In this document: piece by piece, positions 3,005 through 41,271 of the stretch
Position numbering within the stretch: position 1 is the first letter of the stretch
Layout: each line of letters starts with the position of its first letter
Source of the DNA: Coleofasciculus chthonoplastes F2-STO-03
GTDB lineage: Bacteria > Cyanobacteriota > Cyanobacteriia > Cyanobacteriales > Coleofasciculaceae
NCBI GenBank assembly: GCA_040222015.1
Contig: JAVJWO010000192.1
Location: forward strand, 33,013 to 97,012
Length of the DNA: 64,000 nt
Reading direction: 5' to 3'
Program-made: the position numbers and the translations under genes
Notes under the pieces: model-generated
Databases searched by the model: none
What the model was told of the DNA's origin: nothing
Seen by the model: only the letters and a program-made list of their open reading frames with translations

Positions 3005-3025
3005 ATATTTATAACTCTGAAAGAA

Positions 3026-5525: not shown

Positions 5526-5592
5526 GATGTTTATTGGTGCATTAATTAATATAGGGCGAATAAAGTTTAAATTTAAACTTTATTGATAAGTT

Positions 5593-7843: not shown

Positions 7844-7865
7844 GTTACATGTTGTTTATTAAACG

Positions 7866-8834: not shown

Positions 8835-8856
8835 TGCTATATACTATATCAATGGT

Positions 8857-9609: not shown

Positions 9610-9693
9610 GATTTATCTTCTCCTTTTATCTGATCATTAAAACTCAGTGTCAATTTTTTTTTGCTTTCTAGTGCTCAAGACAGAAAATTTTAT

Positions 9694-11705: not shown

Positions 11706-11721
11706 ATTGTATTATAATATC

Positions 11722-12723: not shown

Positions 12724-12764
12724 TGTTTATAACTCCATAAAATTTCAACCATAACATCATTGTC

Positions 12765-14727: not shown

Positions 14728-14781
14728 TTTTTTATGTAAAACAATTTATAAATTTTAAGGCTTTATCCCAAAGCCAAATAA

Positions 14782-15393: not shown

Positions 15394-15446
15394 GTCAACT
15401 CAATTAATAACAAATTGTAACTGGAGAATAATCTTAATAAAGAATA

Positions 15447-16166: not shown

Positions 16167-16195
16167 TATTTTATGACCATTACCAATAATTTAAA

Positions 16196-17482: not shown

Positions 17483-17518
17483 TATCCATTACCTAGTTCG
17501 CTTATCTACTGAAAATAT

Positions 17519-18340
17519 CTAGATTACATCTGCAAATGTACGTTCTACCTTACGAAAATACCACACCCCACTCGCCAATACTCCAAAAACCAATCCCAAT
17601 GAGAGGAGAAATCCTGGCATGTAAATTCTGGCTTCCCCACCTAAAATTGCCCAACGAAACCCATCGATTACCCCAACCATCGGGTTGAGTGAATAAACTA
17701 ATCGCCACTCTTGAGGCACAATTGTACTACTAAATCCCACGGGCGAAATATACAAACCAAACTGGACAATGAACGGGACAATATAGCGAAAATCCCGATA
17801 CTTCACATTCAGCGCCGCTAACCATAACCCAGCCCCCATTGATGCCGCAAACGCAATTATAATAAAAAATGGTAGTGTCAAAATTCGCCAACTGGGTAGG
17901 AAATCGTACCACGCCATTAAGCCTATCAAAATTATCCCCGATATCATAAAATCGACAAAGCTGACAATCACGGCACTGGCTGGCACAATCAAACGGGGAA
18001 AGTAGACCTTGGCAATTAGATTAGCATTACTAATCAAACTATTGCTGCACCCGGAAAGGGCATTGGAAAAAAACTGCCATGGTAACATCGCTGCAAACAC
18101 CAAAATCGGATAGGGAACTCCTTCAGACGGTAACTTGGCTAGTTTACCAAAAACTATCGTAAATACCACCATCGTTAAAAAGGGTCGAATTAATGCCCAG
18201 GCTATGCCAATGATGGTTTGCTTGTATCGTACTAGGATATCTCGCCATGCCAGAAAGTAGAACAGTTCCCGGTAACGCCACAAGTCTTTCCAATATTGTT
18301 GTTCGGTGTGACCTGCCTCAATTATCAGTTCTTGCGTCAT
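17519..18340 (-). CDS. wzm: Polysaccharide ABC transporter permease
   Basis: RDILVRYKQT, KVYFPR, six hydrophobic segments and the C-terminus FADVI. Confidence 0.93.
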   Translation of the reverse strand: MTQELIIEAGHTEQQYWKDLWRYRELFYFLAWRDILVRYKQTIIGIAWALIRPFLTMVVFTIVFGKLAKLPSEGVPYPILVFAAMLPWQFFSNALSGCSNSLISNANLIAKVYFPRLIVPASAVIVSFVDFMISGIILIGLMAWYDFLPSWRILTLPFFIIIAFAASMGAGLWLAALNVKYRDFRYIVPFIVQFGLYISPVGFSSTIVPQEWRLVYSLNPMVGVIDGFRWAILGGEARIYMPGFLLSLGLVFGVLASGVWYFRKVERTFADVI

Positions 18341-23903: not shown

Positions 23904-24905
23904 CTAATTCCTACCCACCACCTCCCGCACTCGATAAATTGGTCTCCCTTGGGACTCGTGATAGGTTCGCATTAACACTTCTGCTAACAGACCAAAGCTA
24001 AATAACTGGACGCCTGCTAATAACAGAACAACAGCTAAAATCAGCAAAGGTCGGTCACCAATCTGCTGTCCAAAACCGAGTTTAAGTAGGGTTAAATACA
24101 GTCCTAATAACAATCCGACACCGAAGGAAAGCAAGCCAAATAGACCAAAGACATGCATGGGGCGAGTGAGGAATTTTTTCATAAAAAATACGGTCAATAA
24201 ATCCATCACCACACGAAAGGTTCGCCCCAATCCATACTTACTTGTACCATAACGACGGGCATGATGTCGCACGGGAATTTCACTAATTCTGGCTCCCTCA
24301 ATGTAAGCTAATGCTGGCAGAAATCGATGTAACTCGCCATAGAGATTCATATCCGCCACCAGTTCAGAACGGTAGGCTTTAAGGGAACACCCATAGTCAT
24401 GTAATTTGACGCCAGTCACTTTCCCAATTAACCAATTGGCAATTTTAGAGGGGAGGAGTCGAGTTAAAGCCGCATCTTGTCGTTCTTTGCGCCAACCACT
24501 GACTAAATCATACCCTTCTTCTATTTTGGCGAGTAAGGCGGGAATATCAGCCGGATCATTTTGTAAATCACCATCTATCATCACAATAACGCGAGCTTGA
24601 GCATGTTTAAATCCGGCTGACATGGCGGCGGTTTGACCGTAATTTCGGCGGAGAATCACCGCTCTTAAGTCTGAGCGGCTGCGTGCTAATTCGAGGAGGA
24701 GTTCGGTGGAACCATCCTGAGAACCATCATCGACACAGACAATTTCGTAGGCAAACTGATTGGCACTTAAACTGGTTGCTACAGAGTCAACCAGGTGGGG
24801 TATACTAGCGACTTCATTGTAAATAGGGACAACGACCGATAACGCTAGTGAATTTGATGGGGTGATCGGTTCTTGATAGTCCTTAAAGGATAATGAATCT
24901 GTCAT
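23904..24905 (-). CDS. Polyprenyl-phosphate glycosyltransferase (GT2, GtrB/ArnC-like)
   Basis: VDDGSQD, RNYGQTAA, DGDLQNDP and HRFLP motifs, two C-terminal TM helices. Confidence 0.9.
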   Translation of the reverse strand: MTDSLSFKDYQEPITPSNSLALSVVVPIYNEVASIPHLVDSVATSLSANQFAYEIVCVDDGSQDGSTELLLELARSRSDLRAVILRRNYGQTAAMSAGFKHAQARVIVMIDGDLQNDPADIPALLAKIEEGYDLVSGWRKERQDAALTRLLPSKIANWLIGKVTGVKLHDYGCSLKAYRSELVADMNLYGELHRFLPALAYIEGARISEIPVRHHARRYGTSKYGLGRTFRVVMDLLTVFFMKKFLTRPMHVFGLFGLLSFGVGLLLGLYLTLLKLGFGQQIGDRPLLILAVVLLLAGVQLFSFGLLAEVLMRTYHESQGRPIYRVREVVGRN

Positions 24906-24916
24906 ATTTTAATTCC

Positions 24917-26236
24917 TTATTGTCTTGACTCCATCGATTTATACAAGTTTGCACTTATCTTAGAGATAAAGGGCAAAGAAAGTACCGGGTACAACAGCCA
25001 TAAGGGAGGCAAATAGCGCAGGCTTTCGCGGAACGCTAAAAAGCCTTTGCGTTTTGAGCCGCTAGGGAGGACAAGATAAAGCAGTTTTTTATAGTCATCC
25101 GGGACAATTTCCGCCATGTTATCACTCTGGGTTGATTGTTGGGTCTGCAAATCCCTGAATGTTAGCCGATTAAACCAATTAAAGTAGGATAAAACGGTAA
25201 TGATAGTGAGACAATGATTATCTGATTTGTTATAAATAATTTCAGGGTTGTGAGTTAAACCATCAAGGCGACGACGTTCAGACACATTTCCGACTAATTC
25301 TGCCCAAGGAATAAAGACTGAATAGCAGGGAATATACTTTAGAAATGGAGCATTTTGAGCAATATATATTCCTGTATGGAAGCAAATCCCTAGAGGAATA
25401 TAAAACCAGATTAAACGGGGAAAAACTAGCACAAAGAAAAATGTTGCCTCAAACAGGATTGCCACCCAAGACGATAGCATAGCTAATGTATGTTGTCTGG
25501 CTAACCAAATCCCTAAGGGTCTATCCCAAACCAGCCCATCCTGCCACAAATAATATTGTAATGTATAGCCATTCATCCAATCGAGTCCTCCTTTAAGCAG
25601 CTTACTCATAGCTGAGTCTAGGTAGATAATTGCAAACATCCACTGGATGAGCAATAAGGGCCATCTAGCCAAGTGACTTTTTTCTTGCTGAATATCAAAA
25701 GTATCTACGCTTTTTCTCTGGCAATTTTGTCGAATACGACGCCGCAGATCGTCTAGGGATAAAACTTGACCAGCAGGACTCAAAGCCAAGATGACAAGCG
25801 ATATCATGACTAAGGCTTGAGAATGACTATACAAGGCACTGAAGGAGTATATATAAGCTTGAATCAATATATTCCCAATCGCAAATATAATTAAATTCAG
25901 ATTTGTTGACAGTCCAATTAAGCCGAATGTTCCTGTTATTATAGTTAACGCTAAAATTACTAATAGCAACACAACCGGAGGAGGATGATTTAGCCCAAAT
26001 GGTAAGAGTATAATCTTTAAAATGGGTAGCGGATTGTAAAGAAAATCCGGTAATTGAGAATTATTCACTAACTGACTCACTATAGTACCATCTCGACCTG
26101 GAACTAATAAATAGAAGAGTTGAGAGCCAACAATAATAATTCGACTAATGGCTAGATTAAACAAGGGGGTGAGTTTGAACCAATAGGTTGTCCACCATTC
26201 CCAAGGTACAGTTAGTTTATTAAACATCGGTATCAT
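24917..26236 (-). CDS. HTTM-domain membrane protein with a degenerate DCC-like C-terminal domain
   Basis: LSLD..R, YLDSAMSKL..G.DW..G and FH.GI motifs. The C-terminal IIYNKSDNHC...GFLAF resembles DUF393 without the full CxxC. Confidence 0.7.
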   Translation of the reverse strand: MIPMFNKLTVPWEWWTTYWFKLTPLFNLAISRIIIVGSQLFYLLVPGRDGTIVSQLVNNSQLPDFLYNPLPILKIILLPFGLNHPPPVVLLLVILALTIITGTFGLIGLSTNLNLIIFAIGNILIQAYIYSFSALYSHSQALVMISLVILALSPAGQVLSLDDLRRRIRQNCQRKSVDTFDIQQEKSHLARWPLLLIQWMFAIIYLDSAMSKLLKGGLDWMNGYTLQYYLWQDGLVWDRPLGIWLARQHTLAMLSSWVAILFEATFFFVLVFPRLIWFYIPLGICFHTGIYIAQNAPFLKYIPCYSVFIPWAELVGNVSERRRLDGLTHNPEIIYNKSDNHCLTIITVLSYFNWFNRLTFRDLQTQQSTQSDNMAEIVPDDYKKLLYLVLPSGSKRKGFLAFRESLRYLPPLWLLYPVLSLPFISKISANLYKSMESRQ

Positions 26237-26760
26237 TTTTTTCTCAATTCGGCAATTGGGTACTGTTTAACCAGTTGGGCTTCCGCTTCAATTACCTCGT
26301 CTTTGAGTAAGACGAGGGGATAGTTATACAATCGTAAATTGATTATTTTAGTGTGGTAACGACTTTCGTATAACTGGACAAAATTCATAATCATTTCTTT
26401 TTTTTCTAACCGTAGTGATTCTTTGAGTCCATACATAAAAACCCAGTAATTTATGCCTAAATCTTCTGGCTGAATCAGCACTTCAGTTGAATCATCTAGA
26501 GTGGCATAAATTGAATATTGCTTGATTGTATCTCCTTCATATTTGGCATAGTTGTACATCGGATAACTGACGAAGGGCCAGAGGCTAGGATCTGGAGGGG
26601 GTTTGAGCAGTTTATAAGGATATTGCAGTCGTCTAAACTTGGGCCAAAACCCTCTCAGATGTTTAGCGGTATAGAACTGTAGTCCGATGAAAAATAGGAT
26701 AACGATAGATAGAAGGTGGACAGTGAATTTATATGAATGTGTATGACTTAGTTTTGACAT
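26233..26760 (-). CDS. Hypothetical single-TM protein (SdpA-like partner of the HTTM protein)
   Basis: One TM helix, WPFVSYPMY motif, 4-nt overlap with the HTTM gene. Start MSKLS is inferred. Confidence 0.6.
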   Translation of the reverse strand: MSKLSHTHSYKFTVHLLSIVILFFIGLQFYTAKHLRGFWPKFRRLQYPYKLLKPPPDPSLWPFVSYPMYNYAKYEGDTIKQYSIYATLDDSTEVLIQPEDLGINYWVFMYGLKESLRLEKKEMIMNFVQLYESRYHTKIINLRLYNYPLVLLKDEVIEAEAQLVKQYPIAELRKK

Positions 26761-26795
26761 GGTAAACCAATTTTTATAATCGTTTGATTTAAATG

Positions 26796-28457
26796 CTACT
26801 TGACGAGTTTCCACAGTCGTGGGTTTTCTCGACGACGGGGATCAACAAAAACAGGCTCAAGTGTATAATTTTGATTTTGCTCTAACCAAGATTTTAATTC
26901 ATCATGAGGTCGGTAAACAAACACATCTTGAAACTGTGCTGGAATTTCCGGCAGAACATTTGGTTGAACGACAAACAAAATTCCTACATTTGGCTCAAAC
27001 TGACGAGTAAGGGGTAAAACTCTCCCCACAGCCCCCCCTTTACCCCAAAGCACATTTGATGGAACGGAATACAATATGAGGGGTTGTTCAGCTTGGTTAA
27101 CGATAGTCGCAATAGGGTGAACATGATAATTACCGCCTTTACTCCACCATCCATGGGCTTGAGTAATAATTAGATTAGATAAAATGCCGAGGGAAATCAA
27201 AGTAACAAAAATTACTTGCCATATTTTCTGTTGCCTAACTGACCGGAAATTGGTGGACATTTTGCTTGCAAAAAGGTAAGCAACAGACAACTGAAAGCCT
27301 AATAAACAAGGGATAACATAACGAGTCACTGTTGACCGTTGACCGCCTTTAATAAGGTCGGGGATGATTAAGGCTGCAGCCATAACTCCAATCAAGCTGA
27401 TAATAAAAAACCATACCCGTGCTGGAGTGTTTTTGCAAATAAAATAAATCGAATATCCCCCTAAAACAATCAGCGGCAAAATTAACCAATAGATAAGGGA
27501 TTTATTGTCACTCAATAAATAGCTGCAATCTGGACTGTTTAAAGGTAAACACCATCCTCTATCTAAGTCCACAAAAACACGGCTAACACTTAATCCCCAG
27601 GATTTAACTAAAGTTAATAGAGGCAATTTTTGGAAAACCCAACCCATTTGCTCTTCTAAGGGAGGTGGCGCCGTTATCGTATTGATTATCCAGGGAGAGA
27701 AGGCAATAACCCCAGCTAAAGAGGCTAAACTATAAGCAATAACTGTTTTATTAAAGCGAAATCTCTGAGTGACAGCGACATAAAGTCCATGAGACGCTGC
27801 GACAACAGTAAAAAACCAATGGGTGTAAAATCCTAATGTTAGAGTAATGGCGTAGATACTCCAACTTGTCTTTTTATTCAGGCGCATGGCTCTTAATAAA
27901 GCAGCACTGGATATTAAAATAGCCACTGTCAATAAACTATAAGGACGAACTTCCTGAGCATACAAAATATGGAAAGGTGAAATCGCCATCAGCGCCACGG
28001 CTACCCAGGCAACAAAGGGTGATTCAAACAGTTCTCGACAGAGCCAATAAATGCCAGGTAAAGCAAATAAGCTAATCAGAACTGAAAAGCTTCTTAGTGC
28101 TGCCACTGAACTGCCAAACCCAAGTGCCCAAACTCTGAGTGCGAGATAGTAAAGTGGAGCATGCTCAGTGTTTCCCGCTAAAACCCGAATCGTATCTCCC
28201 CAAGTTTTGGTCGGACTCGGACGCTGATACTTGAGCAAATCATCAGAATTAACGACTTCACCGGAAAAGATATCTTGAATAAATTCAGGTTCCGTATAGC
28301 CGAAAATTCGTAAAGATGAGTGGGTTTCATCAAGCCAGTAAACTTTCTGTTCGAGATGAACAAAGCGAAAAAACAGTCCTAAAACCAGTATCGTGATAAT
28401 TAATACGTTAAACCATTTTTTCTTCAATTTAAATGTATTATTAATGTAATTTTTCAT
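26796..28457 (-). CDS. GT39/PMT-like (GT-C) membrane glycosyltransferase
   Basis: YWLDE, EHAPLYY and YAQEVRPY motifs, many TM helices. Confidence 0.88.
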   Translation of the reverse strand: MKNYINNTFKLKKKWFNVLIITILVLGLFFRFVHLEQKVYWLDETHSSLRIFGYTEPEFIQDIFSGEVVNSDDLLKYQRPSPTKTWGDTIRVLAGNTEHAPLYYLALRVWALGFGSSVAALRSFSVLISLFALPGIYWLCRELFESPFVAWVAVALMAISPFHILYAQEVRPYSLLTVAILISSAALLRAMRLNKKTSWSIYAITLTLGFYTHWFFTVVAASHGLYVAVTQRFRFNKTVIAYSLASLAGVIAFSPWIINTITAPPPLEEQMGWVFQKLPLLTLVKSWGLSVSRVFVDLDRGWCLPLNSPDCSYLLSDNKSLIYWLILPLIVLGGYSIYFICKNTPARVWFFIISLIGVMAAALIIPDLIKGGQRSTVTRYVIPCLLGFQLSVAYLFASKMSTNFRSVRQQKIWQVIFVTLISLGILSNLIITQAHGWWSKGGNYHVHPIATIVNQAEQPLILYSVPSNVLWGKGGAVGRVLPLTRQFEPNVGILFVVQPNVLPEIPAQFQDVFVYRPHDELKSWLEQNQNYTLEPVFVDPRRRENPRLWKLVK

Positions 28458-28548: not shown

Positions 28549-30420
28549 CTACTCTTCTCCCGAACAAGATTGCTGCCACTGATTTTTCTTCTCTAAATCC
28601 TGAGTTTCTCCGGGTGGAACAGTGCGTTCCTCGACAAAATAAATGTCTAAACTTTCTATCCGTTGGTTTCCCTGATGCTGTTCATTCCAAGTGCGACATA
28701 AATATTCAGCATAATAGGGATACAGCTTATTCCCGATCGCGCGATTCAGATTGATGAAGTAGGTTCGCCACTGCATATTGGGATACAGGGCATTGCGCTG
28801 CTTAATCGTTGGCTTATCCCAATTGACAGACCCCCCATTCCGCAAAAGGTCAACCTCGCTACCATCCTTCAGCTTCCCGACAATAACGTGCCAGCCGTCA
28901 TCTCTGGGTGGGGCTGGGGCGAAAATACTCCAGGATTGATCTAACCGCAATAGGCTACTAATCCAATCCAAGGAATTCAGTGTCCTCGATTTCATCACCC
29001 GGTCAATTTTGGCAAGAGTATTGGGATCGAGTGTCTGCTTTAGGGATCGCGCATCGGCTAAACTGCGGAAATTCCAAACGGTAACGTAAGCAAATAACAG
29101 CAAGGTGACGATGTTTAAGACTCTGGAAGACTGGACTTCCACCGGACGAAATTTTAACGGGGCGGTGAATTGACCCGCAACTTTACGGTTAGAAGCAATA
29201 GTCTCATAGAATTTTGTCCCTATCGCCATCAAAGGGCGCCAACGGAGAATATAAGCGAGGGGTTTAAATACCGGAGAAAGACTCACCACATAGGCGATTG
29301 CTTCCCACTTGAAATGCCTGTTCTCCTGCCAGTCTACCACGACCCAAGAGTTTTTCTCCTGCATATCGGCATAAATTGAGGGGTCATCCTGCGCCGTTTG
29401 TAAGGGGGTTTTGGGTAGGATTAAAAAGGTTCGCAGCAGATATACAACCTTTTTACAGAACCCACAATCGGCATCGTAATAAATCCTTAATCCTGCCCGT
29501 TGGGGGGTATACATTCGCTTAGAAAGGGCATCCCATACCTCAGTTGGGATAAACACCAACCAGACAAATATCCCTAATGCTGGAAACAAGCCGATATGCA
29601 GCGTCAAGCCAAACCCGATATGTAACAAGATAAACGTGATAATCGTGGCGCAGCGAAAAAACGTGGTGCGCCAGGGAATAAATAGAAATAGGGGTCCAAT
29701 CCACTCCAACACTAATGTGGCAAAGGTGGAAAAAACTAACAGGGGCGGGAAGTTCAGCAGGAATTGACCCAGTGGTGCAGCGTACTGGTCGAAACTTAAG
29801 GCATAATAGACGGCTGTGAGTTTGGGAAACCAGATATCGCTGGTTGTTTTAAACGCAGCGGAAAAGGCATAAACGTAATAAATTTGTAAGGTTAGCGCGA
29901 ATGTAGCCCCGGTGAGAATCCGCTTGGGTAACGGCTTACTGGATGAATTTAAGGCACTATCCACCGAGTAACACGCCCCTAGGGGTAAAAACATCATCCA
30001 GAACAATAGCGCCCGCAGCATATCATCTGCCGCAAATAATACGGTAGGATTCCGGTTGTGTAGGGAAATCAACAACACCCAAGACGCGATCGCAGCCAAC
30101 CGAGTCCTGTATCCTACAAGTAGGGTGACGGCAATTAACCCCGCCAACAAAAACACAACGCCTTGGATAAAGGGTTGACCCCCCAGTAGATGTACAGACC
30201 AATACCAGGGATTTAGAATCTCATTAATCAACGCTGTACGCGGTAATACCCCAGCATCGCTGTACAGTGTGGTAATATCCTTGGCACGGATGAGCAAATC
30301 GGCAATCAGGATAATCGCGACACCGATACGAAAAACAGCTAGCGATCGCAAATCAAACCCAAACAAGGGTTCAAGTTTACTCACCCACTTACTTTTCGGT
30401 TTCTGCACACTGGACGCCAT
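28549..30420 (-). CDS. HTTM (vitamin-K-dependent-carboxylase-like) membrane protein with an inserted DCC thiol-disulfide domain
   Basis: DLRSLAVFRI, HNRN, YYDADCGFC and LDQSWSIFAP motifs. Confidence 0.82.
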   Translation of the reverse strand: MASSVQKPKSKWVSKLEPLFGFDLRSLAVFRIGVAIILIADLLIRAKDITTLYSDAGVLPRTALINEILNPWYWSVHLLGGQPFIQGVVFLLAGLIAVTLLVGYRTRLAAIASWVLLISLHNRNPTVLFAADDMLRALLFWMMFLPLGACYSVDSALNSSSKPLPKRILTGATFALTLQIYYVYAFSAAFKTTSDIWFPKLTAVYYALSFDQYAAPLGQFLLNFPPLLVFSTFATLVLEWIGPLFLFIPWRTTFFRCATIITFILLHIGFGLTLHIGLFPALGIFVWLVFIPTEVWDALSKRMYTPQRAGLRIYYDADCGFCKKVVYLLRTFLILPKTPLQTAQDDPSIYADMQEKNSWVVVDWQENRHFKWEAIAYVVSLSPVFKPLAYILRWRPLMAIGTKFYETIASNRKVAGQFTAPLKFRPVEVQSSRVLNIVTLLLFAYVTVWNFRSLADARSLKQTLDPNTLAKIDRVMKSRTLNSLDWISSLLRLDQSWSIFAPAPPRDDGWHVIVGKLKDGSEVDLLRNGGSVNWDKPTIKQRNALYPNMQWRTYFINLNRAIGNKLYPYYAEYLCRTWNEQHQGNQRIESLDIYFVEERTVPPGETQDLEKKNQWQQSCSGEE

Positions 30421-30706: not shown

Positions 30707-31963
30707 TTAACGAACCGTTTTTCGTCTCCGTTTCCAGAATAGCTGTGCCAATCGTCGCCTTAAATTAACCAACCATTGACCGACCCAATGCTGCAACACT
30801 CGCCAGCGATGGCGCAGGGTGGGCAATCGCTGAAGATAGACGAATTGTCTAATAATACCAGCCAAACGACCGCTTATCTTCAGGGCAAAACTGGAAACCA
30901 CCGCCTCCCCTTTTCCCAAGGTCAACATTTCGCCTAAATGTAAATAGCGGAACGGCTTTAACCGTTTAAGCCTAACCGCCCGATACAGGTTTTTGGCGGC
31001 ACAATCTGCTTGTTGGTAAGCCACTTGTGCGGTTTTGGGGAGTTGACCTGGATAATCTTGAATTTCTGCCATATCCCCTAGGGCTAAGACTTCTGGATAA
31101 TCCACAACCTGTAAAGTAGGGTGGGTGAGTATCTTACCTTGAGGATTCTGCTGACAAGGGAGATGGCGTACCCATTCAATGGAACGAGTCCCCACTGTCC
31201 ATAACACCAGATCAACAGGCATAAGGGTTTTTCCGTTGGGATTAATCAGGGTAATTTGATCCGCTTCAATCGCTTCAACACTGGTTTCAAACTCCATCTG
31301 TACCCGACGGGCGGTTAAGGCGCGATAGGCGGATTTCTGGCTGTAAGGGGTAAAGGTTTTGAGCAATTGTTGACCCCGTTCTATTAGCCGTACTTGTCCC
31401 CGTTGTTGCAAGCGATCGCTCAGTTTACAAGCTAACTCTACACCACTCGGTCCTGCACCGATCACCGCGACGCGAATTTGGGGCAAATTAGACTGTTCTA
31501 ACTGCTTAAGCTTTTGGTTGAGGCGTTCTGCATCAGTAACGGTGCGAAAGGGATAAGCGTAAGTCAGGGGTACGCCCTCTAAGCGCATCTCGACACCAAC
31601 GGCTAAGACTAAATAGTCGTAATTTAGGATTCTCAGGTTTTGCCCTAATTCTGATAGTGTCTCTAATTGCAGCTTAACTTGACGTTTTTCTAGATCGACC
31701 GCCTGAATATTTCCTTGACAAAAGTCAATGGTTGTGTTTTTAATTAAATTCCGATAACGGGGGGCAATTTCCCAGGCTTGTAGTTCCTCGGTCACCCGTT
31801 CATAGAGCAAGGGTGTAAACACCAGATGATCTTTGCGATCGATTAAGGTAATTTTATACTTAGGTGATTTAAACAAGCGAAACCGTTGCAGGTACAAGGC
31901 GGTATAAAGTCCACCAAACCCCCCGCCTAAAATACAGATGTGATTCGAGGGTTCATGGTTCAT
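30707..31963 (-). CDS. Type II NAD(P)H:quinone oxidoreductase, NdbB-like
   Basis: ILGGGFGGLYTA, GAGPSGVELA and PKTAQVAYQQA motifs. Confidence 0.88.
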   Translation of the reverse strand: MNHEPSNHICILGGGFGGLYTALYLQRFRLFKSPKYKITLIDRKDHLVFTPLLYERVTEELQAWEIAPRYRNLIKNTTIDFCQGNIQAVDLEKRQVKLQLETLSELGQNLRILNYDYLVLAVGVEMRLEGVPLTYAYPFRTVTDAERLNQKLKQLEQSNLPQIRVAVIGAGPSGVELACKLSDRLQQRGQVRLIERGQQLLKTFTPYSQKSAYRALTARRVQMEFETSVEAIEADQITLINPNGKTLMPVDLVLWTVGTRSIEWVRHLPCQQNPQGKILTHPTLQVVDYPEVLALGDMAEIQDYPGQLPKTAQVAYQQADCAAKNLYRAVRLKRLKPFRYLHLGEMLTLGKGEAVVSSFALKISGRLAGIIRQFVYLQRLPTLRHRWRVLQHWVGQWLVNLRRRLAQLFWKRRRKTVR

Positions 31964-32907
31964 CGTTCATTGCTAAAGTCCAGTTCAGGAATTGCTCTCA
32001 GTTGCTTCACCAACTCCTTGGAACGAATTGTCCGAGATTTAGGGGTTAGGTGGTAGTGAGTATCGGCAAATAAATCAGAATCAGTTTTCATATTTAAAGA
32101 TTCTGGGTCATAAATTAATGGGGCAATTTTGGCTAACTTCTCTGCCGTTTCTTCCACATTAGCAACGGATTTCTCATCAGTGCGAGCATAGACCCAGGGT
32201 AAAGATAGCACTAATGTTCCGCCCTTGGCTTCAACCTGATCTCGAAATTGCTCAATTCGCTCAAGTGCGTGTTTAGTGATGGGTTGATTAATCGGTAATT
32301 CCCACCACTCTGCTGTGCGACGTTTATCATCTTCTGGGGCGGGATCACCATAGGCATTCACTCCATCCGAATAGTACCCCGTCATCTGTCCTTTTTGGAT
32401 GACATCTATCGTGGATTTAGTGATACCTCTGAGTGTGGCTGTACCCAGGAGTAGGGTATCTTGAGCCAATTGTTTCGGGGGAACGCCACCTAACCCCGGA
32501 CGTCCAATCGCCACACCAAATTGAGCCGAGCGATCGCCGAATCCATCCTCTGACCATAAAATGAGATATTCGGGAATCAGTAGCACAATATCTCCGTCAC
32601 GAACCTGATCAATAATACTGGGAAGAATCACATTTAAACCCACCGGTCCATCGATTCCCAAGTTCAACACCGGAATCCCCAATTTCTCTGACATCAACTC
32701 GGAATTAATCGTGTAATGCGCCCCTGAACCGCCAGTAATCAGCAACCGTCGCGGCGCTTCCACCTTCTCAGCTAAGGCAATTTTGTCTTCGTACATCATC
32801 CGGAGCCAGCTTAATTCTCCGCCATAGCGAGCATTGTAAATGTACCCGATTGTCCAGGCGACAACAGCTACCGCAATCCAACTGGTTAGTTTTAAGGGTT
32901 TCCACAT
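31960..32907 (-). CDS. Membrane-anchored SGNH/DltD-like acyltransferase
   Basis: N-terminal TM helix, ITGGSG (Ser nucleophile block), NLG and C-terminal DTHYH. Translationally coupled to the MBOAT gene. Confidence 0.7.
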   Translation of the reverse strand: MWKPLKLTSWIAVAVVAWTIGYIYNARYGGELSWLRMMYEDKIALAEKVEAPRRLLITGGSGAHYTINSELMSEKLGIPVLNLGIDGPVGLNVILPSIIDQVRDGDIVLLIPEYLILWSEDGFGDRSAQFGVAIGRPGLGGVPPKQLAQDTLLLGTATLRGITKSTIDVIQKGQMTGYYSDGVNAYGDPAPEDDKRRTAEWWELPINQPITKHALERIEQFRDQVEAKGGTLVLSLPWVYARTDEKSVANVEETAEKLAKIAPLIYDPESLNMKTDSDLFADTHYHLTPKSRTIRSKELVKQLRAIPELDFSNER

Positions 32908-34376
32908 CAGAATTCAAAGTAAATAAACTGAGACGGCTGATTCGCGGCGAATAGGATAGTTAATCCTAATAAAACTCGCGATACCCAAGGCAATAGTAAC
33001 AATTCATATTCAAACTTCCGTTTCTGCCAAACGGCGAGATGTTCCATGAATAACACCCCATTTGCCAGTAACAGCGTGACAATCAACACCGCGCCTTCGT
33101 TGAGACTGTAGGAACTCAAGAATTCGCCTAAATTTGATAACGAATACGCCCATGGGGTAACAATCGTGCGTAACTTTGAGAGCAATCGCAAAATATTCGT
33201 GTCCATAAAGAACAGACATCCCAGCGTCACTGAGCCAAAGGTTAGCGCCCAGGAGAAAAACTGAAACCGGGAGACTTGTTTTCCTTTCCCCATCAAGCGT
33301 TGAAATGGTCTACCTGTATATCGCAAAAGCAAGAGTAACCCCCCATGATACGCGCCCCAAATAATGAAGTTCCACGCCGCACCGTGCCAGAATCCAGATA
33401 AGGTAAAGGTGATGAATAAAAAGAAGGCAGCTAATTGTTTTTTAGACCCCATTAGGGGCAGAAACACATAGTCGCGAAACCAGTTATTTAGGGTAATGTG
33501 CCATCGCCGCCAAAACTCTTGGATACTGACAGAAGTATAGGGAGCCAGGAAGTTCACGGTTAGTTTTACTCCCAATATTCTCGCCACACCCAGCGCCATA
33601 AAACTATACCCGGCAAAATCAAAGTAGATTCGCAGGGTAAATAAGTAAGCAAAGAACCAAACAATCCAGGGATTGGCGGTTTCTTGTAAGTTAATGTAGG
33701 GGGCGATATTATCGGCTAGCACCAACTTCATAAAGAAGCCCAAAGAGAGCCAGCGTAATCCCAACTCAAAGTTTTCGGCTGTGAATTTAAACCGAAACGA
33801 TTGAATTTGGGGTAATAAGTCAGCCCGCCGTTCAATTGGTCCAGCGACAATTTGCGGAAAGAAGGCAATAAAGTTAATGTAATCCAGAAAGGCGATAGGT
33901 TTTTTATATTTGGGTCTGAGGGAATCAACCACAAATGCCACCATCTGGAAGGTGTAGAATGAGACACCAGGGGGAATCTGTTGAAAAATAGGTAAGGGAA
34001 AGCCTTGTTCCCAGTTGGTTCTGATTCCCGGTACGATGATGCCAAATACATCTTCGACGAAAAATGTCAAGTATTTGAGGTAGGCGAGGATCGCAATATC
34101 GGTAATAATTACAATCGCGGCAATTAACTTGGCATCATTTCCACGACGCCGAAGCATCAGCCGTACCATGAAGTAGTTGAAAACGATTTCAACGATAAAG
34201 ATGGCGAAACTGGAGCGACTGGCGTTCAAAAATAACATCAATGACATCACCGCCAAGCCGATGGTGTCAAAGTTGTCTCGCCACAGCTTCAGAGATTTGC
34301 CCACATAGCGAATGGCAAAGAAAGGAATGGCGTAAAGTAGTAGTATCCACCAGAAGGAAAAGTCAGAAAAATTCAA
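32907..34376 (-). CDS. MBOAT family O-acyltransferase (AlgI/DltB-like) with C-terminal FIYFEF
   Basis: PPGVSFYTFQ, FFPQIVAGPI, YFDFAGYS, FWRRWHITL and SGFWHG motifs. TTG start behind AGGAGG. Confidence 0.93.
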   Translation of the reverse strand: MNFSDFSFWWILLLYAIPFFAIRYVGKSLKLWRDNFDTIGLAVMSLMLFLNASRSSFAIFIVEIVFNYFMVRLMLRRRGNDAKLIAAIVIITDIAILAYLKYLTFFVEDVFGIIVPGIRTNWEQGFPLPIFQQIPPGVSFYTFQMVAFVVDSLRPKYKKPIAFLDYINFIAFFPQIVAGPIERRADLLPQIQSFRFKFTAENFELGLRWLSLGFFMKLVLADNIAPYINLQETANPWIVWFFAYLFTLRIYFDFAGYSFMALGVARILGVKLTVNFLAPYTSVSIQEFWRRWHITLNNWFRDYVFLPLMGSKKQLAAFFLFITFTLSGFWHGAAWNFIIWGAYHGGLLLLLRYTGRPFQRLMGKGKQVSRFQFFSWALTFGSVTLGCLFFMDTNILRLLSKLRTIVTPWAYSLSNLGEFLSSYSLNEGAVLIVTLLLANGVLFMEHLAVWQKRKFEYELLLLPWVSRVLLGLTILFAANQPSQFIYFEF

Positions 34377-34593
34377 TTAACGGCTTCCTCCTTTTTTGTC
34401 CTTTGTCATTTGTCATTCGTCATTTGTCATTTGTTAGGGAACAGGGAACAGGGAACAGGGAATAGGCTATAGAAATTTTATCTCCTATCTACCCTAACCA
34501 GGGCGGGTTTAGTCAAGTTATCAGTGTGTAGCCATAAATGATCTGTAAAACCCGCCCCTACAACGCTGCTCCCAGACGTGCCATGGCACGTTT

Positions 34594-35028
34594 CTACCCT
34601 CCCAATCCTTTCCAAAATCCACCCCAGCCTTTGCCGGATTTTTCGGATGCTTCGGGTTTCGCTTCTTTCGTCTCAGAGGCGGCGGGTTCGGCGTTATCTG
34701 ATGCGGCTGAAACATCGAATTCTTCGACTAAATATTGAGCCGATTTCTCAATCGTTGGATAATCCCAGAACAAGGTTGAAGGTAATTCCACCTCTAGCCA
34801 ATCTTCGAGTTCACCGACAATCGTTACCGCATCAATAGAGTCAAGTCCATAGCGGGTTAGGGGTTCGGTGACATCAATGTTTTTGGCGTCTAGGGACAGT
34901 TGTTCAACCAGTTGATTTACCATCCAGTTTTGAATCGCTTGGACGGAATCAACAGACTGATTGGTGGTTTCTACGTCACTTTGAACCATAACGTCATTAG
35001 GCTTGGAGTTGGAGTTCTGCACTTGCAT
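34594..35028 (-). CDS. Acyl carrier protein
   Basis: YGLDSI phosphopantetheine site and WDYPTI. The ATG at 35028 follows GAGGA and overlaps the 3' end of the upstream gene. Confidence 0.9.
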   Translation of the reverse strand: MQVQNSNSKPNDVMVQSDVETTNQSVDSVQAIQNWMVNQLVEQLSLDAKNIDVTEPLTRYGLDSIDAVTIVGELEDWLEVELPSTLFWDYPTIEKSAQYLVEEFDVSAASDNAEPAASETKEAKPEASEKSGKGWGGFWKGLGG

Positions 35029-36799
35029 GGGGTTTTTCCTCTTGTGTTTCAGTTTGGGCGAGTTGAATCGGTACAATGGAAAACATTTTGTTTTCCTGAT
35101 GCAGCTTCAGCAGGTGTTGTGCCACATTTTCACTGTACGCTTTCGGGACAGTGGGTAGGGTTCGCCAAGGGCGTAAACGGCGATAAAGTCCTAAGACTAA
35201 CCATTCTCCCTGAGCAAAAAAATCATCCAAGATGGTTCGGTTGTAAATCCAGGTGTGAACTGACGCGGCGGCGGCGTGTAAGTCGCAGTATTTTTTCGCC
35301 AGTTCAAAGAGTTCGGGATCTTGATCATGACCATGTTCAAATCCGGAGTTGGCAATGCGTTCATCGAAGGCGTCGAGTTCTTCTAGAACAATGGTCGTTA
35401 AGGTGATAATTTTTTCCAGTACGTCGGCGTCAACATCCGATGCTGTCTTCAGCGCCTGGAGTTGTTCCAGGGCAATTTCTAACCCTTGCAGCACATCGTC
35501 AGCCCCCCGACCAAATAATCCCAGCTTCTCTGGCTTAAAGGGTGGCACGGATTTTTCTAGGGAAAAAATGGTATCCAGACGAGATTGAATCCCCTCCATC
35601 GTCTTCTGCTTGCGTCTGGAGCGATATTTGGCAATTTGACGAAACTGGAGAATTAGGGCATGGAGGTTCACCACACTACTGCCATCAAACATACTGATAA
35701 TTGAATTATCCCGCAGCAGTTTCTGGAATATGCCGTAGTCATGCTCATCACGCATATAGAAGCGGGAACCGAGGACAACGTAAACACTATTAATCACCTC
35801 CTCTAGTTTGATGGTGACAAAGTATTTCACCACCGCCGCCCAAACTGAGAATTGTTCGGGGATAATATGAAAACCTCTGGCTGCACTAATGGTTTCGCAG
35901 TCACAAACCAACATATCAATAAAGGCATCGACTAAGGTTTGTCGAGGTTGGGGGATATCAAAAACCGTTTTGTTATAAATAACCCGGTCAATGGCAAAAT
36001 TCAGCGTGGTTCTCATCGCCGTATCAGCCGCACCATGAGAGAAGGCGGCGCATAACATCCGGGTAATTTGGAAGCCTTTGAGTGCTAGTTCTAACCCCGA
36101 ACCTTCGTCCTTTAAGCGCATTGCTTCGGGAATAAAGCAATCCTTAAACCCAATCCCGCTCATATCTGAAGCACGAATCCCATGGGTAAGGATTTTGGGC
36201 AGATGGTAATAGGTAGAGGGGTCAAGTTGCCGTTTGTCAACCATAAATAAGGAGAGACACCGAGCGCCCTCTTCACTGGTTTTGGCTAACACAAAGGTTA
36301 CGCCGGAACGGGTAGCCCGGTTAATGGGCCACTTTTCGCCATTGAGGAGATAGCCGCCCTCAACTTTTTTGGCCGTTACATCACCGCCAATCAAGTCACT
36401 CCCATGGGCTCGTTCGGAATAAGCCAGACACATTGTCCCCTTTTCCTCGCGGATAAACTGGGATAGTTTCTTTTTCTGGTCATCTGTCCCCGCCATCCAG
36501 GTCAGGAATGACCAGAACATCGTGGTGAATGCGATCGCGATCGTTTGATCTCGCCGTGACATCACCCGGACAAAGGCGACGAATTCCTCAAAGGAGGTAA
36601 ATTTGCCACCACAGTTTTCTGGCACATAGTAATCTTGCAGTTTCCAGTTATAAAGCCAATCCACTTCAGCTTCGGGAAACTCTTCGCTCTCATCCAGGTC
36701 CATCACCCGCTTAAAGGACATCGTACTTTCTGGATGACCCGGATCGCCCAAATCCCGTTCTAGCGCTTCTGCTATTTGATACTGTTTCAGTTGATGCAT
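34997..36799 (-). CDS. Acyl-CoA/acyl-ACP dehydrogenase
   Basis: AYSERAHGSD, LNGEKWPI, GIRASD and MFDGSSVVN motifs. Confidence 0.9.
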   Translation of the reverse strand: MHQLKQYQIAEALERDLGDPGHPESTMSFKRVMDLDESEEFPEAEVDWLYNWKLQDYYVPENCGGKFTSFEEFVAFVRVMSRRDQTIAIAFTTMFWSFLTWMAGTDDQKKKLSQFIREEKGTMCLAYSERAHGSDLIGGDVTAKKVEGGYLLNGEKWPINRATRSGVTFVLAKTSEEGARCLSLFMVDKRQLDPSTYYHLPKILTHGIRASDMSGIGFKDCFIPEAMRLKDEGSGLELALKGFQITRMLCAAFSHGAADTAMRTTLNFAIDRVIYNKTVFDIPQPRQTLVDAFIDMLVCDCETISAARGFHIIPEQFSVWAAVVKYFVTIKLEEVINSVYVVLGSRFYMRDEHDYGIFQKLLRDNSIISMFDGSSVVNLHALILQFRQIAKYRSRRKQKTMEGIQSRLDTIFSLEKSVPPFKPEKLGLFGRGADDVLQGLEIALEQLQALKTASDVDADVLEKIITLTTIVLEELDAFDERIANSGFEHGHDQDPELFELAKKYCDLHAAAASVHTWIYNRTILDDFFAQGEWLVLGLYRRLRPWRTLPTVPKAYSENVAQHLLKLHQENKMFSIVPIQLAQTETQEEKPHASAELQLQA

Positions 36800-36809
36800 A
36801 AACCTGTAC

Positions 36810-36868
36810 CGAATGACGAATTACAAATGACGAATGACGAATGACAAATGACGAATGACGAATGACAA
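36810..36868. repeat. Short tandem repeat (GAATGAC/AAATGAC)n
   Basis: Seen directly. Similar arrays lie at about 22686-22740, 34395-34433, 40267-40297 and 42927-42958. Confidence 0.9.
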
Positions 36869-36871
36869 ACC

Positions 36872-38713
36872 CTAAGATTTAGGAACTTGTAATTGCTTCG
36901 CCAACGCATCGACTTCTCCCTGGAGAGTACGGAACTTGCTCGTCAGTTTCGGATTTTCACTCCAATCCGCAATCACACCCAGTTCTCCATTCAGGAACTT
37001 GGTTCTCGCCGCACGGCGCTGAATCTTACCACTTGAGGTTTTCTCAATGGTTCCCGGTTGAACTAAGACAACCGCATACGCCGGGATTTCATGTTCCTCA
37101 GCAATAGCTTGGCGAATATCACCAATCACTTCCTCAAAGTTGACATCTTGAGTTCGACGTTCAACCTCCTGCAACGTAATCAACCGTTCCTCACCGCCAG
37201 CCACGATCGAAAATGCCGCCCCATAATCCGGACGCAAGGCGGAGTGAACCTGCTGCACCGTCCATTCAATATCTTGCGGATAATGGTTAGTGCCTCGGAT
37301 AATAATCAGGTCTTTAATCCGACCCGTAATAAACAGTTCACCCTCCCGCAAAAATCCTAAATCCCCGGTTCGCAAGAACGGACCATCCCCCGTATCTGCA
37401 AGATTTGCCTGAAAGGTTTCTTTTGTCGCTTCTTCTCGTTGCCAATACCCTTGGGCGACACTGGGATCTTTCACCCAAATTTCTCCTACTTGATCCGGTT
37501 CACATTGGGTCAATGTATCAGGATTAGCGATAACCACTTGGGTATCACAAACCAGACGCCCGCAACTGGGTAACATCCTGACTCCCTCTTGGGGACTGGA
37601 TAGGGGAACAATCCGATTTTTTTCTAACGCGGATGCATCTAGGATACAGAGAACCGGCGGGGTGAGTAATGGCTTACTTGATACCAGCAGCGTATCTTCG
37701 GCGAGTCCATAAGCAGGGGCAAAGGCATTCCAGCGAAACCCGCATTGTTCAAAGGTTTCAAAGAACGCCTGCATCACTTTCGGGTTAATCGGTTCCGCCG
37801 CATTGCCCGCTGCTTGCCAACTGCTTAAATCCAGTTTTGCCAGTTGTTTGGGTTTTGCCCGCCGCACGCACAAATCGTAGGCAAAGTTAGGGGCTTGGCT
37901 ATGGGTTGCCCGATAATGGGTAATTGCCCCTAACCAGCGCATCGGTTGCTTAATAAACGAGAAGGGCGACATCACATAACAGGGCGTACCGTTATAGAGG
38001 GGTTGGATCATGCCTTGGACTAACCCGTAATCGTGGAAGTAGGGCATCCACGTCACGGTAGCGCTTTCTGAATCGTAACCGCAGGCTTCATTCAGATAGC
38101 CGGAATGGAACATCAGGTTATGGTGAGATAGCATCACTCCCTTGGGTGTGGAGGTAGACCCTGATGTGTACTGAAGATACGCTAGATCATCCCGACTGGT
38201 TTTTGGATCTTGCCAGGATTCAGCTAGATTCAGATCCACCTGTTCCGTATCCAGCCATTGGATATGGTCAAATTCGGGAAAGTCCTCTCGTCCATTCTCC
38301 AACAGAGACAGAATTCGACCTGTGGTTAAACAAATCGAGGCTTGAGCATCCTGGACAATCGATCGCAGTCTGGGTAACGTGCGCTTCATCCGTCCCCCAT
38401 CCGGAGGCGGTACCGGAATCGCGATAATTCCCCCATACAAACAGCCACAAAAGGCAGCAATCACCTCTAATCCTTGGGGATACAGGAGTAACGCTCGCTC
38501 TCCTCTAGCACTGTGCTGTTGTAGCCAAGCGCCAATCGCCCGGGCTATACGGTCAAGTTCCGTGTATGTGAGTTCGGGTCCATCTGGCTTACCATCAACG
38601 AGAAACTTATAGGCTAATTTGTCTGGCTGCTGACGCGCCCTCCAACGCAGCAATTCTGTCAGTGTCGAAAATTCAGCTAGGGAAACTGTAGAACTAGCAG
38701 GGTTTTGAACCAT
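36872..38713 (-). CDS. Fatty acyl-AMP ligase (FAAL)
   Basis: YLQYTSGSTSTPKG, YGLAE, FAAL-type insertion LDASALEKNRI, RTGDLG and KTSSGKIQR motifs. Confidence 0.92.
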   Translation of the reverse strand: MVQNPASSTVSLAEFSTLTELLRWRARQQPDKLAYKFLVDGKPDGPELTYTELDRIARAIGAWLQQHSARGERALLLYPQGLEVIAAFCGCLYGGIIAIPVPPPDGGRMKRTLPRLRSIVQDAQASICLTTGRILSLLENGREDFPEFDHIQWLDTEQVDLNLAESWQDPKTSRDDLAYLQYTSGSTSTPKGVMLSHHNLMFHSGYLNEACGYDSESATVTWMPYFHDYGLVQGMIQPLYNGTPCYVMSPFSFIKQPMRWLGAITHYRATHSQAPNFAYDLCVRRAKPKQLAKLDLSSWQAAGNAAEPINPKVMQAFFETFEQCGFRWNAFAPAYGLAEDTLLVSSKPLLTPPVLCILDASALEKNRIVPLSSPQEGVRMLPSCGRLVCDTQVVIANPDTLTQCEPDQVGEIWVKDPSVAQGYWQREEATKETFQANLADTGDGPFLRTGDLGFLREGELFITGRIKDLIIIRGTNHYPQDIEWTVQQVHSALRPDYGAAFSIVAGGEERLITLQEVERRTQDVNFEEVIGDIRQAIAEEHEIPAYAVVLVQPGTIEKTSSGKIQRRAARTKFLNGELGVIADWSENPKLTSKFRTLQGEVDALAKQLQVPKS

Positions 38714-38995
38714 CTTTATATAACCTTATCTAAGCAGTTGGCTGGGGCTAAGTCTAAGACCTTGTCGCCGCGATCGCTCCATTCATTCGTAGTCGGTGTT
38801 TGATTCGCCACCTTAGCTCAGCTACCCCGATCCGCACGCACATTTAACTCATCTTAAAAATTGATAACAAAACGTGACATAATTATTCTTCTTCCAGTGC
38901 TTTAGATCATTATGGCGTAATATTTATGAATGATACTAATTCTCTATAAAGTTTTGGTAAAGTTTTTACGGTCATTCGTCATTCGTCATTTGTAA

Positions 38996-40150
<1,155 letters not shown>

Positions 40151-40403: not shown

Positions 40404-41271
40404 GAAAAATCGGGCACCGCCAGGGAAACCTGACGAGTGAATGTAGTCAAATTCAAGGAAGCCTAAGTCTGATAACAGATACGGTAATCTTGAGCCAAGC
40501 CGATGCGTTTGAGTTTAAGTCAATCTGGCAAAACTCCACTCTAAAAACGAATCGGAAGGTGCAGAGACTGGTTTAAGGACACCGATAAAAGATGGACTAT
40601 AATGTCTCATCGAAAGTAGAGCAACGCGGTATTCTGGCTGGACTGTTATTAGGTGATGGAAAAAGAAATCAAAACAATTTCTTGATCCAGAATTCATCGA
40701 AGTATGAGGAGTATCTCTTATTTAAGAAAAAGCTTCTCGAACAAATAACGGGTAAATCAGTCAGCATCCGACGCTGGAGTACAAGGAAGGGCTATGAGCA
40801 GATTCGCTTAGAACCAAAGTTGATTCCCCTGACACGGGTTTTAGTTAAGAGGCTTTATCAAGCGGGAACCAAAACAATCACCCGAACGTTCCTAAATTTC
40901 TTAACTCCCCAGGGAATAGCGATTTGGTTTATGGATGATGGGTCTAAGTCCTTCCCGAAAAAAGACGGAAAGGTTCATGCTTTGACGCTTAATCTGAATA
41001 CTTATCTCTCTAAAGAACAAAATGAGATCATTGTTGCTTATTTTGCCGAGGTTTGGGGATTTAAGTGGGGGCTGAGTAAAGCCAAAGGTCTTTATCGTCT
41101 GCGAATGGGAACGAAGGAAGGAAAACGGTTTTTAGCGTTCATTCATCCTTACATCCACGACAGTATGCTCTATAAAGTACAAACGTCCTTAAACAGAACG
41201 GCTACCACCTAAAGGCGATACGCCCAAGGTGAAGGAATAGTCCAGAGAGTGAGGAAACTCACACCAATCTG
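40404..41271 (+). ncRNA. Group I self-splicing intron (IC3-like, 868 nt) inserted after anticodon position 36
   Basis: The 5' exon ends in U with P1 CCUGA/UCGGG. Core elements: P AAATTCAAGGAA, Q AATCTTGAGC, R GTGCAGAGACT, S AAGGAATAGTCC. P3 GTAGTC/GGCTAC, P8 CACCT/AGGTG, terminal G at 41271. Confidence 0.93.
40592..41212 (+). CDS. Intron-encoded LAGLIDADG homing endonuclease (two-motif, LAGLIDADG_2 / I-SceI-like)
   Basis: Motif 1 ILAGLLLGDG and motif 2 GIAIWFMDDG, with C-terminal IHDSMLYK. Located inside the group I intron. Confidence 0.9.
   Translation: MDYNVSSKVEQRGILAGLLLGDGKRNQNNFLIQNSSKYEEYLLFKKKLLEQITGKSVSIRRWSTRKGYEQIRLEPKLIPLTRVLVKRLYQAGTKTITRTFLNFLTPQGIAIWFMDDGSKSFPKKDGKVHALTLNLNTYLSKEQNEIIVAYFAEVWGFKWGLSKAKGLYRLRMGTKEGKRFLAFIHPYIHDSMLYKVQTSLNRTATT

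Follow-up and report, generated by a model that had tools for sequence, protein, structure and literature searches.

A co-inherited cyanobacterial gene set that probably encodes a carrier-fed MBOAT–SGNH envelope acylation pathway with a gamma-carboxylase-fold protein

A set of seven co-inherited genes was found in a 64 000-nucleotide stretch of DNA (the window) from Coleofasciculus chthonoplastes F2-STO-03 (GenBank assembly GCA_040222015.1, contig JAVJWO010000192.1, positions 33 013–97 012; coordinates given here are those of the window). In the usual order FAAL-ACAD-ACP-MBOAT-SGNH-NDH2-HTTM, their products are a fatty acyl-AMP ligase (FAAL), an acyl-ACP dehydrogenase-like flavoprotein (ACAD), a stand-alone acyl carrier protein (ACP), a membrane-bound O-acyltransferase (MBOAT), an SGNH-fold protein, an NDH-2-type quinone reductase and an HTTM-DCC1 membrane protein with the predicted fold of gamma-carboxylase (GGCX). 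The seven genes probably form one envelope-modifying pathway, a conserved and apparently undescribed variant of MBOAT–SGNH envelope acylation. The system would work as a hybrid of a lipid starter of the nonribosomal peptide synthetase/polyketide synthase (NRPS/PKS) type, a PatA/PatB-type relay and a vitamin K-type redox pair. An earlier reading of the window from its letters and open reading frames (the sequence-only reading) had proposed a five-gene, Dlt-like relay for fatty acyl groups. The five genes are real and the carrier-fed MBOAT–SGNH relay is retained, on the grounds of co-occurrence and of the other FAALs of this genome having ACPs of their own, but the MBOAT is of the PatA/AlgI type and the unit is larger, an NdbB-like reductase and the gamma-carboxylase-fold protein being inherited with it.

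In the proposed pathway the FAAL, to judge from its family, would adenylate a fatty acid and load it onto the dedicated ACP, and the Asp-type dehydrogenase would alter the acyl-ACP. The membrane-held ACP would present the chain to the MBOAT, where His331, by analogy with PatA/PatB, would move it to the enzyme's own Tyr486 and then to Ser61 of the SGNH protein, which would transfer the acyl group to a glycan outside the cytoplasmic membrane. Least certainly, the NdbB-like reductase may supply reduced quinone, and the GGCX-fold enzyme may use quinol and O2 to tailor the acyl chain or the acceptor. Loading of the ACP by the FAAL together with the His–Tyr–Ser relay is considered likely. That the GGCX-like protein performs vitamin K chemistry on this product (carboxylation, oxygenation or mere quinol turnover are all conceivable) is judged to fall somewhat short of an even chance. 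A full cyanobacterial vitamin K cycle for the envelope, with a dedicated phylloquinone reductase feeding a gamma-carboxylase-like enzyme that carboxylates or oxygenates the relay-delivered acyl group, is rather unlikely; if it exists, the surface glycan would bear an unusual, acidic lipid group, and vitamin K-dependent chemistry would be acting on a lipid or glycan of the envelope, not on a peptide.

In the literature consulted, the bacterial MBOAT–SGNH relays that have been characterised carry only acetyl or d-alanyl groups. A long-chain, carrier-fed relay would explain the attachment of fatty acids to surface glycans in some cyanobacteria, and Nostoc PCC 7120 offers a host in which to test it. 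Of the thousands of bacterial gamma-carboxylase homologues still uncharacterised, one would be placed in a defined pathway next to a candidate supplier of quinol, and the role of these homologues would become directly testable. No description of a system combining an MBOAT with a FAAL, with or without an ACP, was found in the literature, and papers on tyrosine-borne transfer by MBOAT and SGNH proteins did not, by title or abstract, deal with this system, most subscription journals lying outside the search.

Co-inheritance of the gene set

Orthologues were sought in one even set of 301 genomes of the phylum, source genome included, with cut-offs of E 1e-40 for ACAD, 1e-230 for FAAL, 1e-110 for MBOAT and 1e-20 for SGNH. 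Those of ACAD, FAAL and MBOAT were found in an identical set of 17/301 genomes from seven families, and those of SGNH in these 17 and one fragmented genome. FAAL orthologues shared 62–68% identity in 16/300 other genomes. HTTM-DCC1 copies of at least 53% identity occurred in exactly the same 17/301; four further genomes had only weaker or broken copies, and in one of these four (G311) the syntenic site lacked the block except for a broken HTTM gene. Loci were inspected in the 16 other positive genomes (for the unlinked genes, in 7/8 cases for FAAL and 7/8 for HTTM). The five genes were contiguous in seven. In the remaining nine the genes were spread over three or four places, yet FAAL, ACAD, ACP, MBOAT, SGNH and HTTM were all kept. 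That these parts persist when the operon breaks up is the strongest evidence for a shared pathway. All seven genes stood in order in the source genome, in 6/16 of the sampled positives and in 12/80 metagenome loci.

Within the genus, the operon SGNH gene was deleted or truncated in 6/8 genomes; the operon HTTM gene was gone or a remnant in 5/5 of those six in which its site was visible, and all six carried a second SGNH–HTTM pair elsewhere (60–63% identity). SGNH and HTTM are therefore swapped as a pair. Five same-genus genomes in which the genes upstream of SGNH and HTTM seemed to be missing were rejected as exceptions: ACAD–ACP–MBOAT was kept in them and FAAL was kept in the four where it was visible.

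The metagenome set consisted of 80 loci picked by SGNH and covered only SGNH relatives of at least 45% identity. Where the gene just upstream of SGNH was visible (67 loci), it encoded the MBOAT in 42 and an LA_3751-family GT-C glycosyltransferase in 19; where the gene just downstream was visible (68 loci), it encoded NDH-2 in 42 and HTTM in nine. These counts are not independent because many of the loci are near-identical relatives. The system was also present in named Microcystis, Nostoc/Anabaena and Coleofasciculus records, the closest named relatives being Coleofasciculus assemblies (90–94%).

The genes of the locus are collected in Table 1. The five genes first reported were confirmed as co-oriented minus-strand open reading frames (ORFs) with two overlaps (ACAD/ACP, 32 nt; MBOAT/SGNH, 1 nt). 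The NDH-2 gene overlaps the SGNH stop by 4 nt and is followed by the HTTM-DCC1 gene. A scan of 48 window ORFs gave no PKS or NRPS domain, in agreement with the sequence-only reading.

Table 1. Genes of the locus and its variable downstream block (the span flagged by the sequence-only reading ran from 31960 to 38713)
Feature	Positions	Strand	Basis or remark
FAAL, 613 aa	36872..38713	(-)	PF00501 E 1e-64; FAAL models; FAAL-type PDB matches
Long (600 aa) acyl-ACP dehydrogenase-like flavoprotein (ACAD), Asp372	34997..36799	(-)	PF02770/PF00441/PF02771
Stand-alone ACP, 144 aa	34594..35028	(-)	PF00550, GLDS motif
MBOAT, 489 aa, TTG start, His331, C-terminal FIYFEF	32907..34376	(-)	PF03062
N-terminally anchored SGNH-fold protein, 315 aa, predicted triad Ser61/Asp282/His286	31960..32907	(-)	Model and fold search
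Extra NDH-2-type NAD(P)H:quinone reductase, NdbB-like	30707..31963	(-)	PF07992; beyond the flagged span
HTTM-DCC1 membrane protein, 623 aa, predicted GGCX fold and CGFC thioredoxin-like domain	28549..30420	(-)	Beyond the flagged span
Variable downstream block: PMT_2 (GT-C) glycosyltransferase, 193-aa protein, shorter HTTM-DCC1, ArnC-like GT2	23904..28457	(-)	Pfam/NCBIfam

Predicted acyl loading and transfer

The adenylating enzyme scored with FAAL models and structures, not as a d-alanine-activating DltA: its NCBIfam matches were led by FAAL models after one NRPS/PKS model, and its best PDB matches were FAAL-type adenylating domains. Each of the other three FAALs of the source genome has its own ACP directly behind it. 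In the ACP of the operon (for which an alternative TTG start at 35076 would give 160 aa) the Ser of the GxDS motif is invariant among the aligned orthologues. In 18/21 aligned orthologues the protein ends in a basic, aromatic tail, which is predicted to form a membrane-binding helix and likely holds the protein at the membrane.

Catalytic motifs had been read as intact throughout, which does not apply to the ACAD. Its MFDGS motif aligns Asp372 with the Glu of IYEGT in solved ACADs, and Asp occupies this position (FDG) in 19/19 orthologues; the canonical catalytic Glu of acyl-CoA dehydrogenases is thus absent from the MCAD (YEG) position. At what we take to be the Glu site of LCAD/IVD the protein has Thr246, ahead of a conserved Arg. 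Activity is compatible with this replacement because Asp is catalytic in ACAD10/11; it is predicted to be so in LvaC (PMC12440821). The conversion carried out by ACAD10/11 is that of 4-phosphoacyl-CoA to 2-enoyl-CoA, not plain dehydrogenation (PMC12440821). An FDG-type ACAD also occurs in the FAAL–ACAD–ACP trios that precede NRPS/PKS genes in Acinetobacter and Ralstonia, and the product linked to the Acinetobacter trio was described in PMC5376624 as having a hydroxylated chain, with no unsaturation seen. The earlier expectation that the acyl group is probably unsaturated is therefore weakened. The reaction of the ACAD is, together with that of the GGCX-like protein, the least certain part of the proposed pathway.

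The Acinetobacter genes A1S_0112-0114 (Ac-505) and a similar Ralstonia PKS/NRPS cluster share with the operon the gene order of the trio and the long FDG-type ACAD, at 34–37% identity (the L049 locus is taken, from its gene content, to be the A1S_0112-0119 cluster). In those clusters the ACP feeds NRPS/PKS modules, whereas here the MBOAT and SGNH genes come next.

In the MBOAT, His331, F484, Y486 and F489 are kept in 22/22 orthologues; His331 aligns to the His of the DltB motif GFWHG and FxYxxF forms the C-terminal end in 22/22. In PatA the catalytic His acylates the Tyr of a C-terminal FxYxxF, from which the group passes to PatB, and the Dlt system has a separate DltX in place of an MBOAT-borne Tyr motif (PMC12148441). 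The position of the Tyr shuttle on the enzyme's own tail therefore identifies a PatA/AlgI-type MBOAT, not a DltB/DltX pair. Against the DltB equivalog model TIGR04091 it scored 191 bits (cut-off 375), DltB being its sole PDB sequence match, and no co-oriented small ORF of at least 30 aa resembling a separate DltX microprotein was found at the locus. The locus resembles the Dlt system in combining an adenylating enzyme, a carrier, an MBOAT, a Tyr intermediate and an SGNH-like transferase (PMC12148441). It differs in having a FAAL and not a d-alanine ligase, in its extra dehydrogenase, in the lack of a separate DltX and in its diderm host, and it is not a Dlt member because three defining features (the DltB equivalog, DltA and DltX) are absent.

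A predicted complex of the MBOAT with the ACP scored 0.44, a weak value (best control 0.00; the mark was passed by 116/157 solved and 2/215 mismatched pairs, and at scores of 0.60 or less by 18/157 and both mismatches). Contact agreement across runs was at least 84% and partner pLDDT (predicted local distance difference test) at least 78. The score may reflect the solved look-alike complex of DltB with DltC.

The SGNH protein gave no Pfam, NCBIfam, PDB-sequence or plasmid match, so its family assignment rests on the fold. The model (pLDDT 90, 33 sequences) was matched first to SGNH hydrolases in both fold searches, with a best Z of 13.5 (root-mean-square deviation, rmsd, 4.2; 187 residues aligned), a Z of 10.7 for PatB and a Z of 9.9 for DltD. 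The predicted triad is present in 33/33 sequences with D-x3-H spacing. The pair thus has the features that PatA/PatB and AlgI/AlgJ/AlgX share, namely the MBOAT His, the same-chain C-terminal FxYxxF Tyr shuttle and an adjoining anchored SGNH-fold partner with Ser/Asp/His (PMC12148441). Unlike PatA, for which acetyl-CoA is the donor (PMC12148441), it is inherited with two additional redox genes and with FAAL, ACAD and a dedicated ACP, and the latter three suggest that the donor is a fatty acyl group bound to the carrier.

Two further MBOAT arrangements were observed. In one genome (G195, L037:8971-12098) the operon-type MBOAT is tandemly duplicated (65% and 63%). Just downstream of the operon there is often a second MBOAT, more distantly related (~35%) and with the tail FLYFQF, next to an anchored protein (L006:1-2120, L009, L010, L021, L151); the two are probably an acetyltransferase pair for the same glycan.

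The quinone reductase and the gamma-carboxylase-fold protein

The paralogue group nearest to the operon NDH-2 is NdbB (42–48% identity), the role of which is given as demethylphylloquinone reductase (PMC12223511); database names of the universal NdbB copies include the same activity. All five positive genomes checked had two NdbB-like genes, and 4/5 negative genomes had one. In a tree of 36 rows, none omitted, the universal copies formed a 12-row clade with 100/100 support, and the 17 operon-linked copies and two others fell outside it. The operon NDH-2 therefore does not belong to the universal NdbB-type clade. It shares the NDH-2 architecture of NdbB/NDC1 (PMC12223511) and differs in being a second, faster-evolving copy with a substrate assigned by prediction. 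The NAD(P)H-binding GxGxxG motif is retained. The source genome also has two VKOR-family genes.

The HTTM-DCC1 model (pLDDT 96.5, 125 sequences) was matched by Foldseek to GGCX in all of the first 16 matches (E 1e-5), and in VIA GGCX was the only match with Z of at least 8 (Z 15.6, rmsd 6.6, 323 residues aligned; next Z 7.4). A profile built from the 125 sequences also matched GGCX (E 4e-5), and the single sequence gave no PDB sequence match. The middle domain, which carries CGFC, resembles thioredoxin and GST folds. In the HMMER profile alignment Lys191, Trp197, Glu239, His267 and Phe279 correspond to GGCX Lys218, Trp223, Asp263, His287 and Phe299, and are conserved in 124, 125, 116, 104 and 121 of the 125 sequences, respectively. 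Lys218 and Asp263 of GGCX activate the quinol, D263E retaining 25% activity (PMC13486548), Phe299 stacks on CO2 and Asn159/His160 bind the Glu substrate (PMC12647623). The order of helices in the model would place Lys191 on the periplasmic side and the CGFC domain in the cytoplasm.

The fold and the equivalents of Lys218, Trp223, Asp263 (as Glu) and Phe299 are shared with GGCX, MloH, the viral epoxidase-desaturases and the DUF5819 + HTTM-DCC1 pair (PMC12647623, PMC13486548, PMC12186529, bioRxiv 10.64898/2026.08.19.745780). MloH, a bacterial relative, carboxylates an NRPS/PKS intermediate (PMC12186529, bioRxiv 10.64898/2026.08.19.745780), and the viral homologues are proposed as epoxidases only (PMC13486548). 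Compared with GGCX, HTTM-DCC1 has an inserted DCC1 CxxC domain, and it differs from GGCX and MloH in context, as its gene is accompanied by those of an acyl-transfer relay and of an NdbB-like reductase, not by those of Gla proteins, NRPS/PKS or VKOR. The literature look-ups on HTTM gave nothing that connects it to this system.

Other HTTM-DCC1 copies were noted. One genome (G277) has a second locus (L039:3030-7964) with an ACAD (63%), a tail-less ACP, an HTTM-DCC1 gene broken by one stop and a fatty acid desaturase, without MBOAT or SGNH; it ties HTTM to acyl-chain chemistry and recalls the viral epoxidase-desaturase fusions. In the window, a shorter HTTM-DCC1 protein of 439 aa is encoded within 24917-26814 (-), between the GT-C and GT2 genes. 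Its Lys, Trp and Glu are kept, CxxC is absent and it aligns to the long HTTM at a probability of 96%. Together with the single-transmembrane 193-aa protein that precedes it (26233-26814), it resembles a split DUF5819 + HTTM architecture (bioRxiv 10.64898/2026.08.19.745780); an alignment of the 193-aa protein with the C-terminal domain of the long HTTM was not obtained (probability 0.4%).

Acceptor, alternative readings and surrounding features

The acceptor is probably a glycan or glycoconjugate, to judge from the neighbouring genes: it is the likeliest acceptor because GT-C and GT2 glycosyltransferases, a DegT amino-sugar transaminase, a cupin, an FkbM methyltransferase and the second MBOAT with its anchored protein recur nearby. 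The genes of the downstream block at 23904..28457 are candidate acceptor builders; the block stands beside the core mainly in close relatives and is not part of the conserved core. A module of LA_3751-family GT-C, DegT and cupin was considered as core and rejected, having a different profile. In Nostoc PCC 7120 the MBOAT is alr4060, and the FAAL, by accession order, would be alr4057, which was up 2.49-fold with exopolysaccharide (EPS) genes on sigJ overexpression (PMC2779892). The sheath, EPS or LPS of the sequence-only reading are candidate acceptors, and the product may be amphipathic as that reading proposed.

Several points weigh against a single envelope pathway of this kind. It is drawn from gene content, co-inheritance, motifs and predicted folds. 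The FAAL and MBOAT cut-offs were chosen by the authors to exclude paralogues (~50% and ~35%), and only four FAAL candidates per genome were scored. The genomes are kin, and transfer of the whole block in one piece is conceivable; 17/17 therefore overstates independence. One genome (450 contigs) has SGNH and NDH-2 with no ACAD match, and two NdbB-like genes are present in one of the negative genomes, too. In the MBOAT the stretch that presumably corresponds to the DltC-binding part of DltB is shortened. GGCX Asn159 and His160 (Glu substrate) and Asn290 (quinol binding) are not kept in HTTM-DCC1, the columns holding Gly/Ala and Phe; Arg123 and Asp132 are almost invariant in it. The HTTM-DCC1 family is large (4,020 representatives at E <=1e-30), and its remoter members turn up where the rest of the system is lacking, as well as in archaeal settings unrelated to it. 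No one glycan-synthesis gene has the same distribution as the set, the LA_3751-family GT-C occurring in 10/17 genomes and three others, and the sigJ signal is weak, being that of one gene among many.

Three other readings were weighed against the single envelope pathway. Instead of a polymer, the same relay could acylate a lipid or small molecule (glycolipid, lipid A, lipid-linked sugar or secreted lipo-metabolite). Such an acceptor would suit the starter-module role of the FAAL–ACAD–ACP trio in Acinetobacter and Ralstonia, the use of lipid-linked sugars by GT-C/GT2 pairs such as the neighbouring ones, the failure to find a polymer gene sharing the profile and the ACAD–ACP–HTTM–desaturase locus of L039. 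It is nevertheless considered unlikely: the characterised pairs that PMC12148441 lists all acylate envelope polymers, and exporter, condensation or thioesterase genes are not recurrent among the neighbours. An ordinary acetyl-CoA-dependent O-acetyltransferase, with the FAAL–ACAD–ACP trio feeding a PKS/NRPS elsewhere and a merely historical linkage, is very improbable, every part being kept in 9/9 genomes with a split operon. The source genome's other FAALs also have their own ACPs, and the separate ~35% MBOAT paralogues here and in relatives could cover acetylation. In its favour, PatA has the same tail and takes acetyl-CoA directly (PMC12148441), NRPS/PKS-type adenylation domains lie on other contigs of the source genome, and ACAD–ACP and MBOAT–SGNH are unlinked in 4/16 genomes.

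The remaining alternative concerns the redox pair: NDH-2 would take the electrons of the ACAD and so re-oxidise it, standing in for the missing electron-transfer flavoprotein (ETF), and the GGCX-like protein would only recycle quinol, or serve as a redox partner by way of its CxxC domain, and leave the product unchanged. ETF (PF01012) was not found in the source genome or in 5/5 other positive genomes, a control search having matched in 10/14, and NDH-2 remains with ACAD–ACP–MBOAT when SGNH and HTTM leave the operon. The absent GGCX substrate-binding residues and the epoxidase-only proposal for the viral homologues would also fit a protein confined to redox turnover. On the other hand, the kept GxGxxG motif implies an electron source of its own, NDH-2 in other genomes adjoins SGNH or HTTM and is separated from the ACAD, and HTTM is swapped together with SGNH, the acceptor-side enzyme. 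This redox-only alternative is held to be improbable, and the single envelope pathway is preferred to all three.

Further genes for surface glycans were recorded. A module of LA_3751-family GT-C, WbuC-like cupin, DegT and GT2 lies beside a second SGNH copy at L008:7602-15322 and L105-L117; the source genome has its LA_3751-family GT-C on contig C36 but lacks a close cupin or a close DegT. At 2012-18340 (-), ~10 kb away from the operon, there is a low-GC (~32-39%) Wzm/Wzt polysaccharide cluster with glycosyltransferases, a sulfotransferase, methyltransferases, a pyruvyl transferase and an ISL3 transposase. It is a possible source of the acceptor, with no conserved linkage seen.

The gaps FAAL–ACAD (72 nt) and ACP–MBOAT (217 nt) both contain 7-nt tandem repeats. 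Repeats of 7–9 nt lie at 34395-34466, 36810-36869 and 38971-39022 and have many matches elsewhere in contigs of relatives. Promoter and terminator scans of the region gave results no different from chance (19 vs 26.5 and 20 vs 16.6, respectively). In RNA data from close relatives (four runs) single contigs spanned FAAL–ACAD–ACP, MBOAT–SGNH and SGNH–NDH-2; depth was found in 30/30 bins for three runs without a silent control region, and the bridging contigs are therefore not proof of transcription. A 31-aa ORF lies just upstream of FAAL at 38716-38811 (-); several relatives have the two in one reading frame (646 aa), and one additional base was seen at 38717 in RNA contigs of relatives; most FAAL orthologues begin at the same ATG as annotated here. 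Tocopherol cyclase was rejected as a core gene as it adjoins the set only in close relatives (five loci). A stand-alone LAGLIDADG_2 endonuclease gene at 40592-41212 (+) adjoins the cyclase gene and is also present in three same-genus loci.

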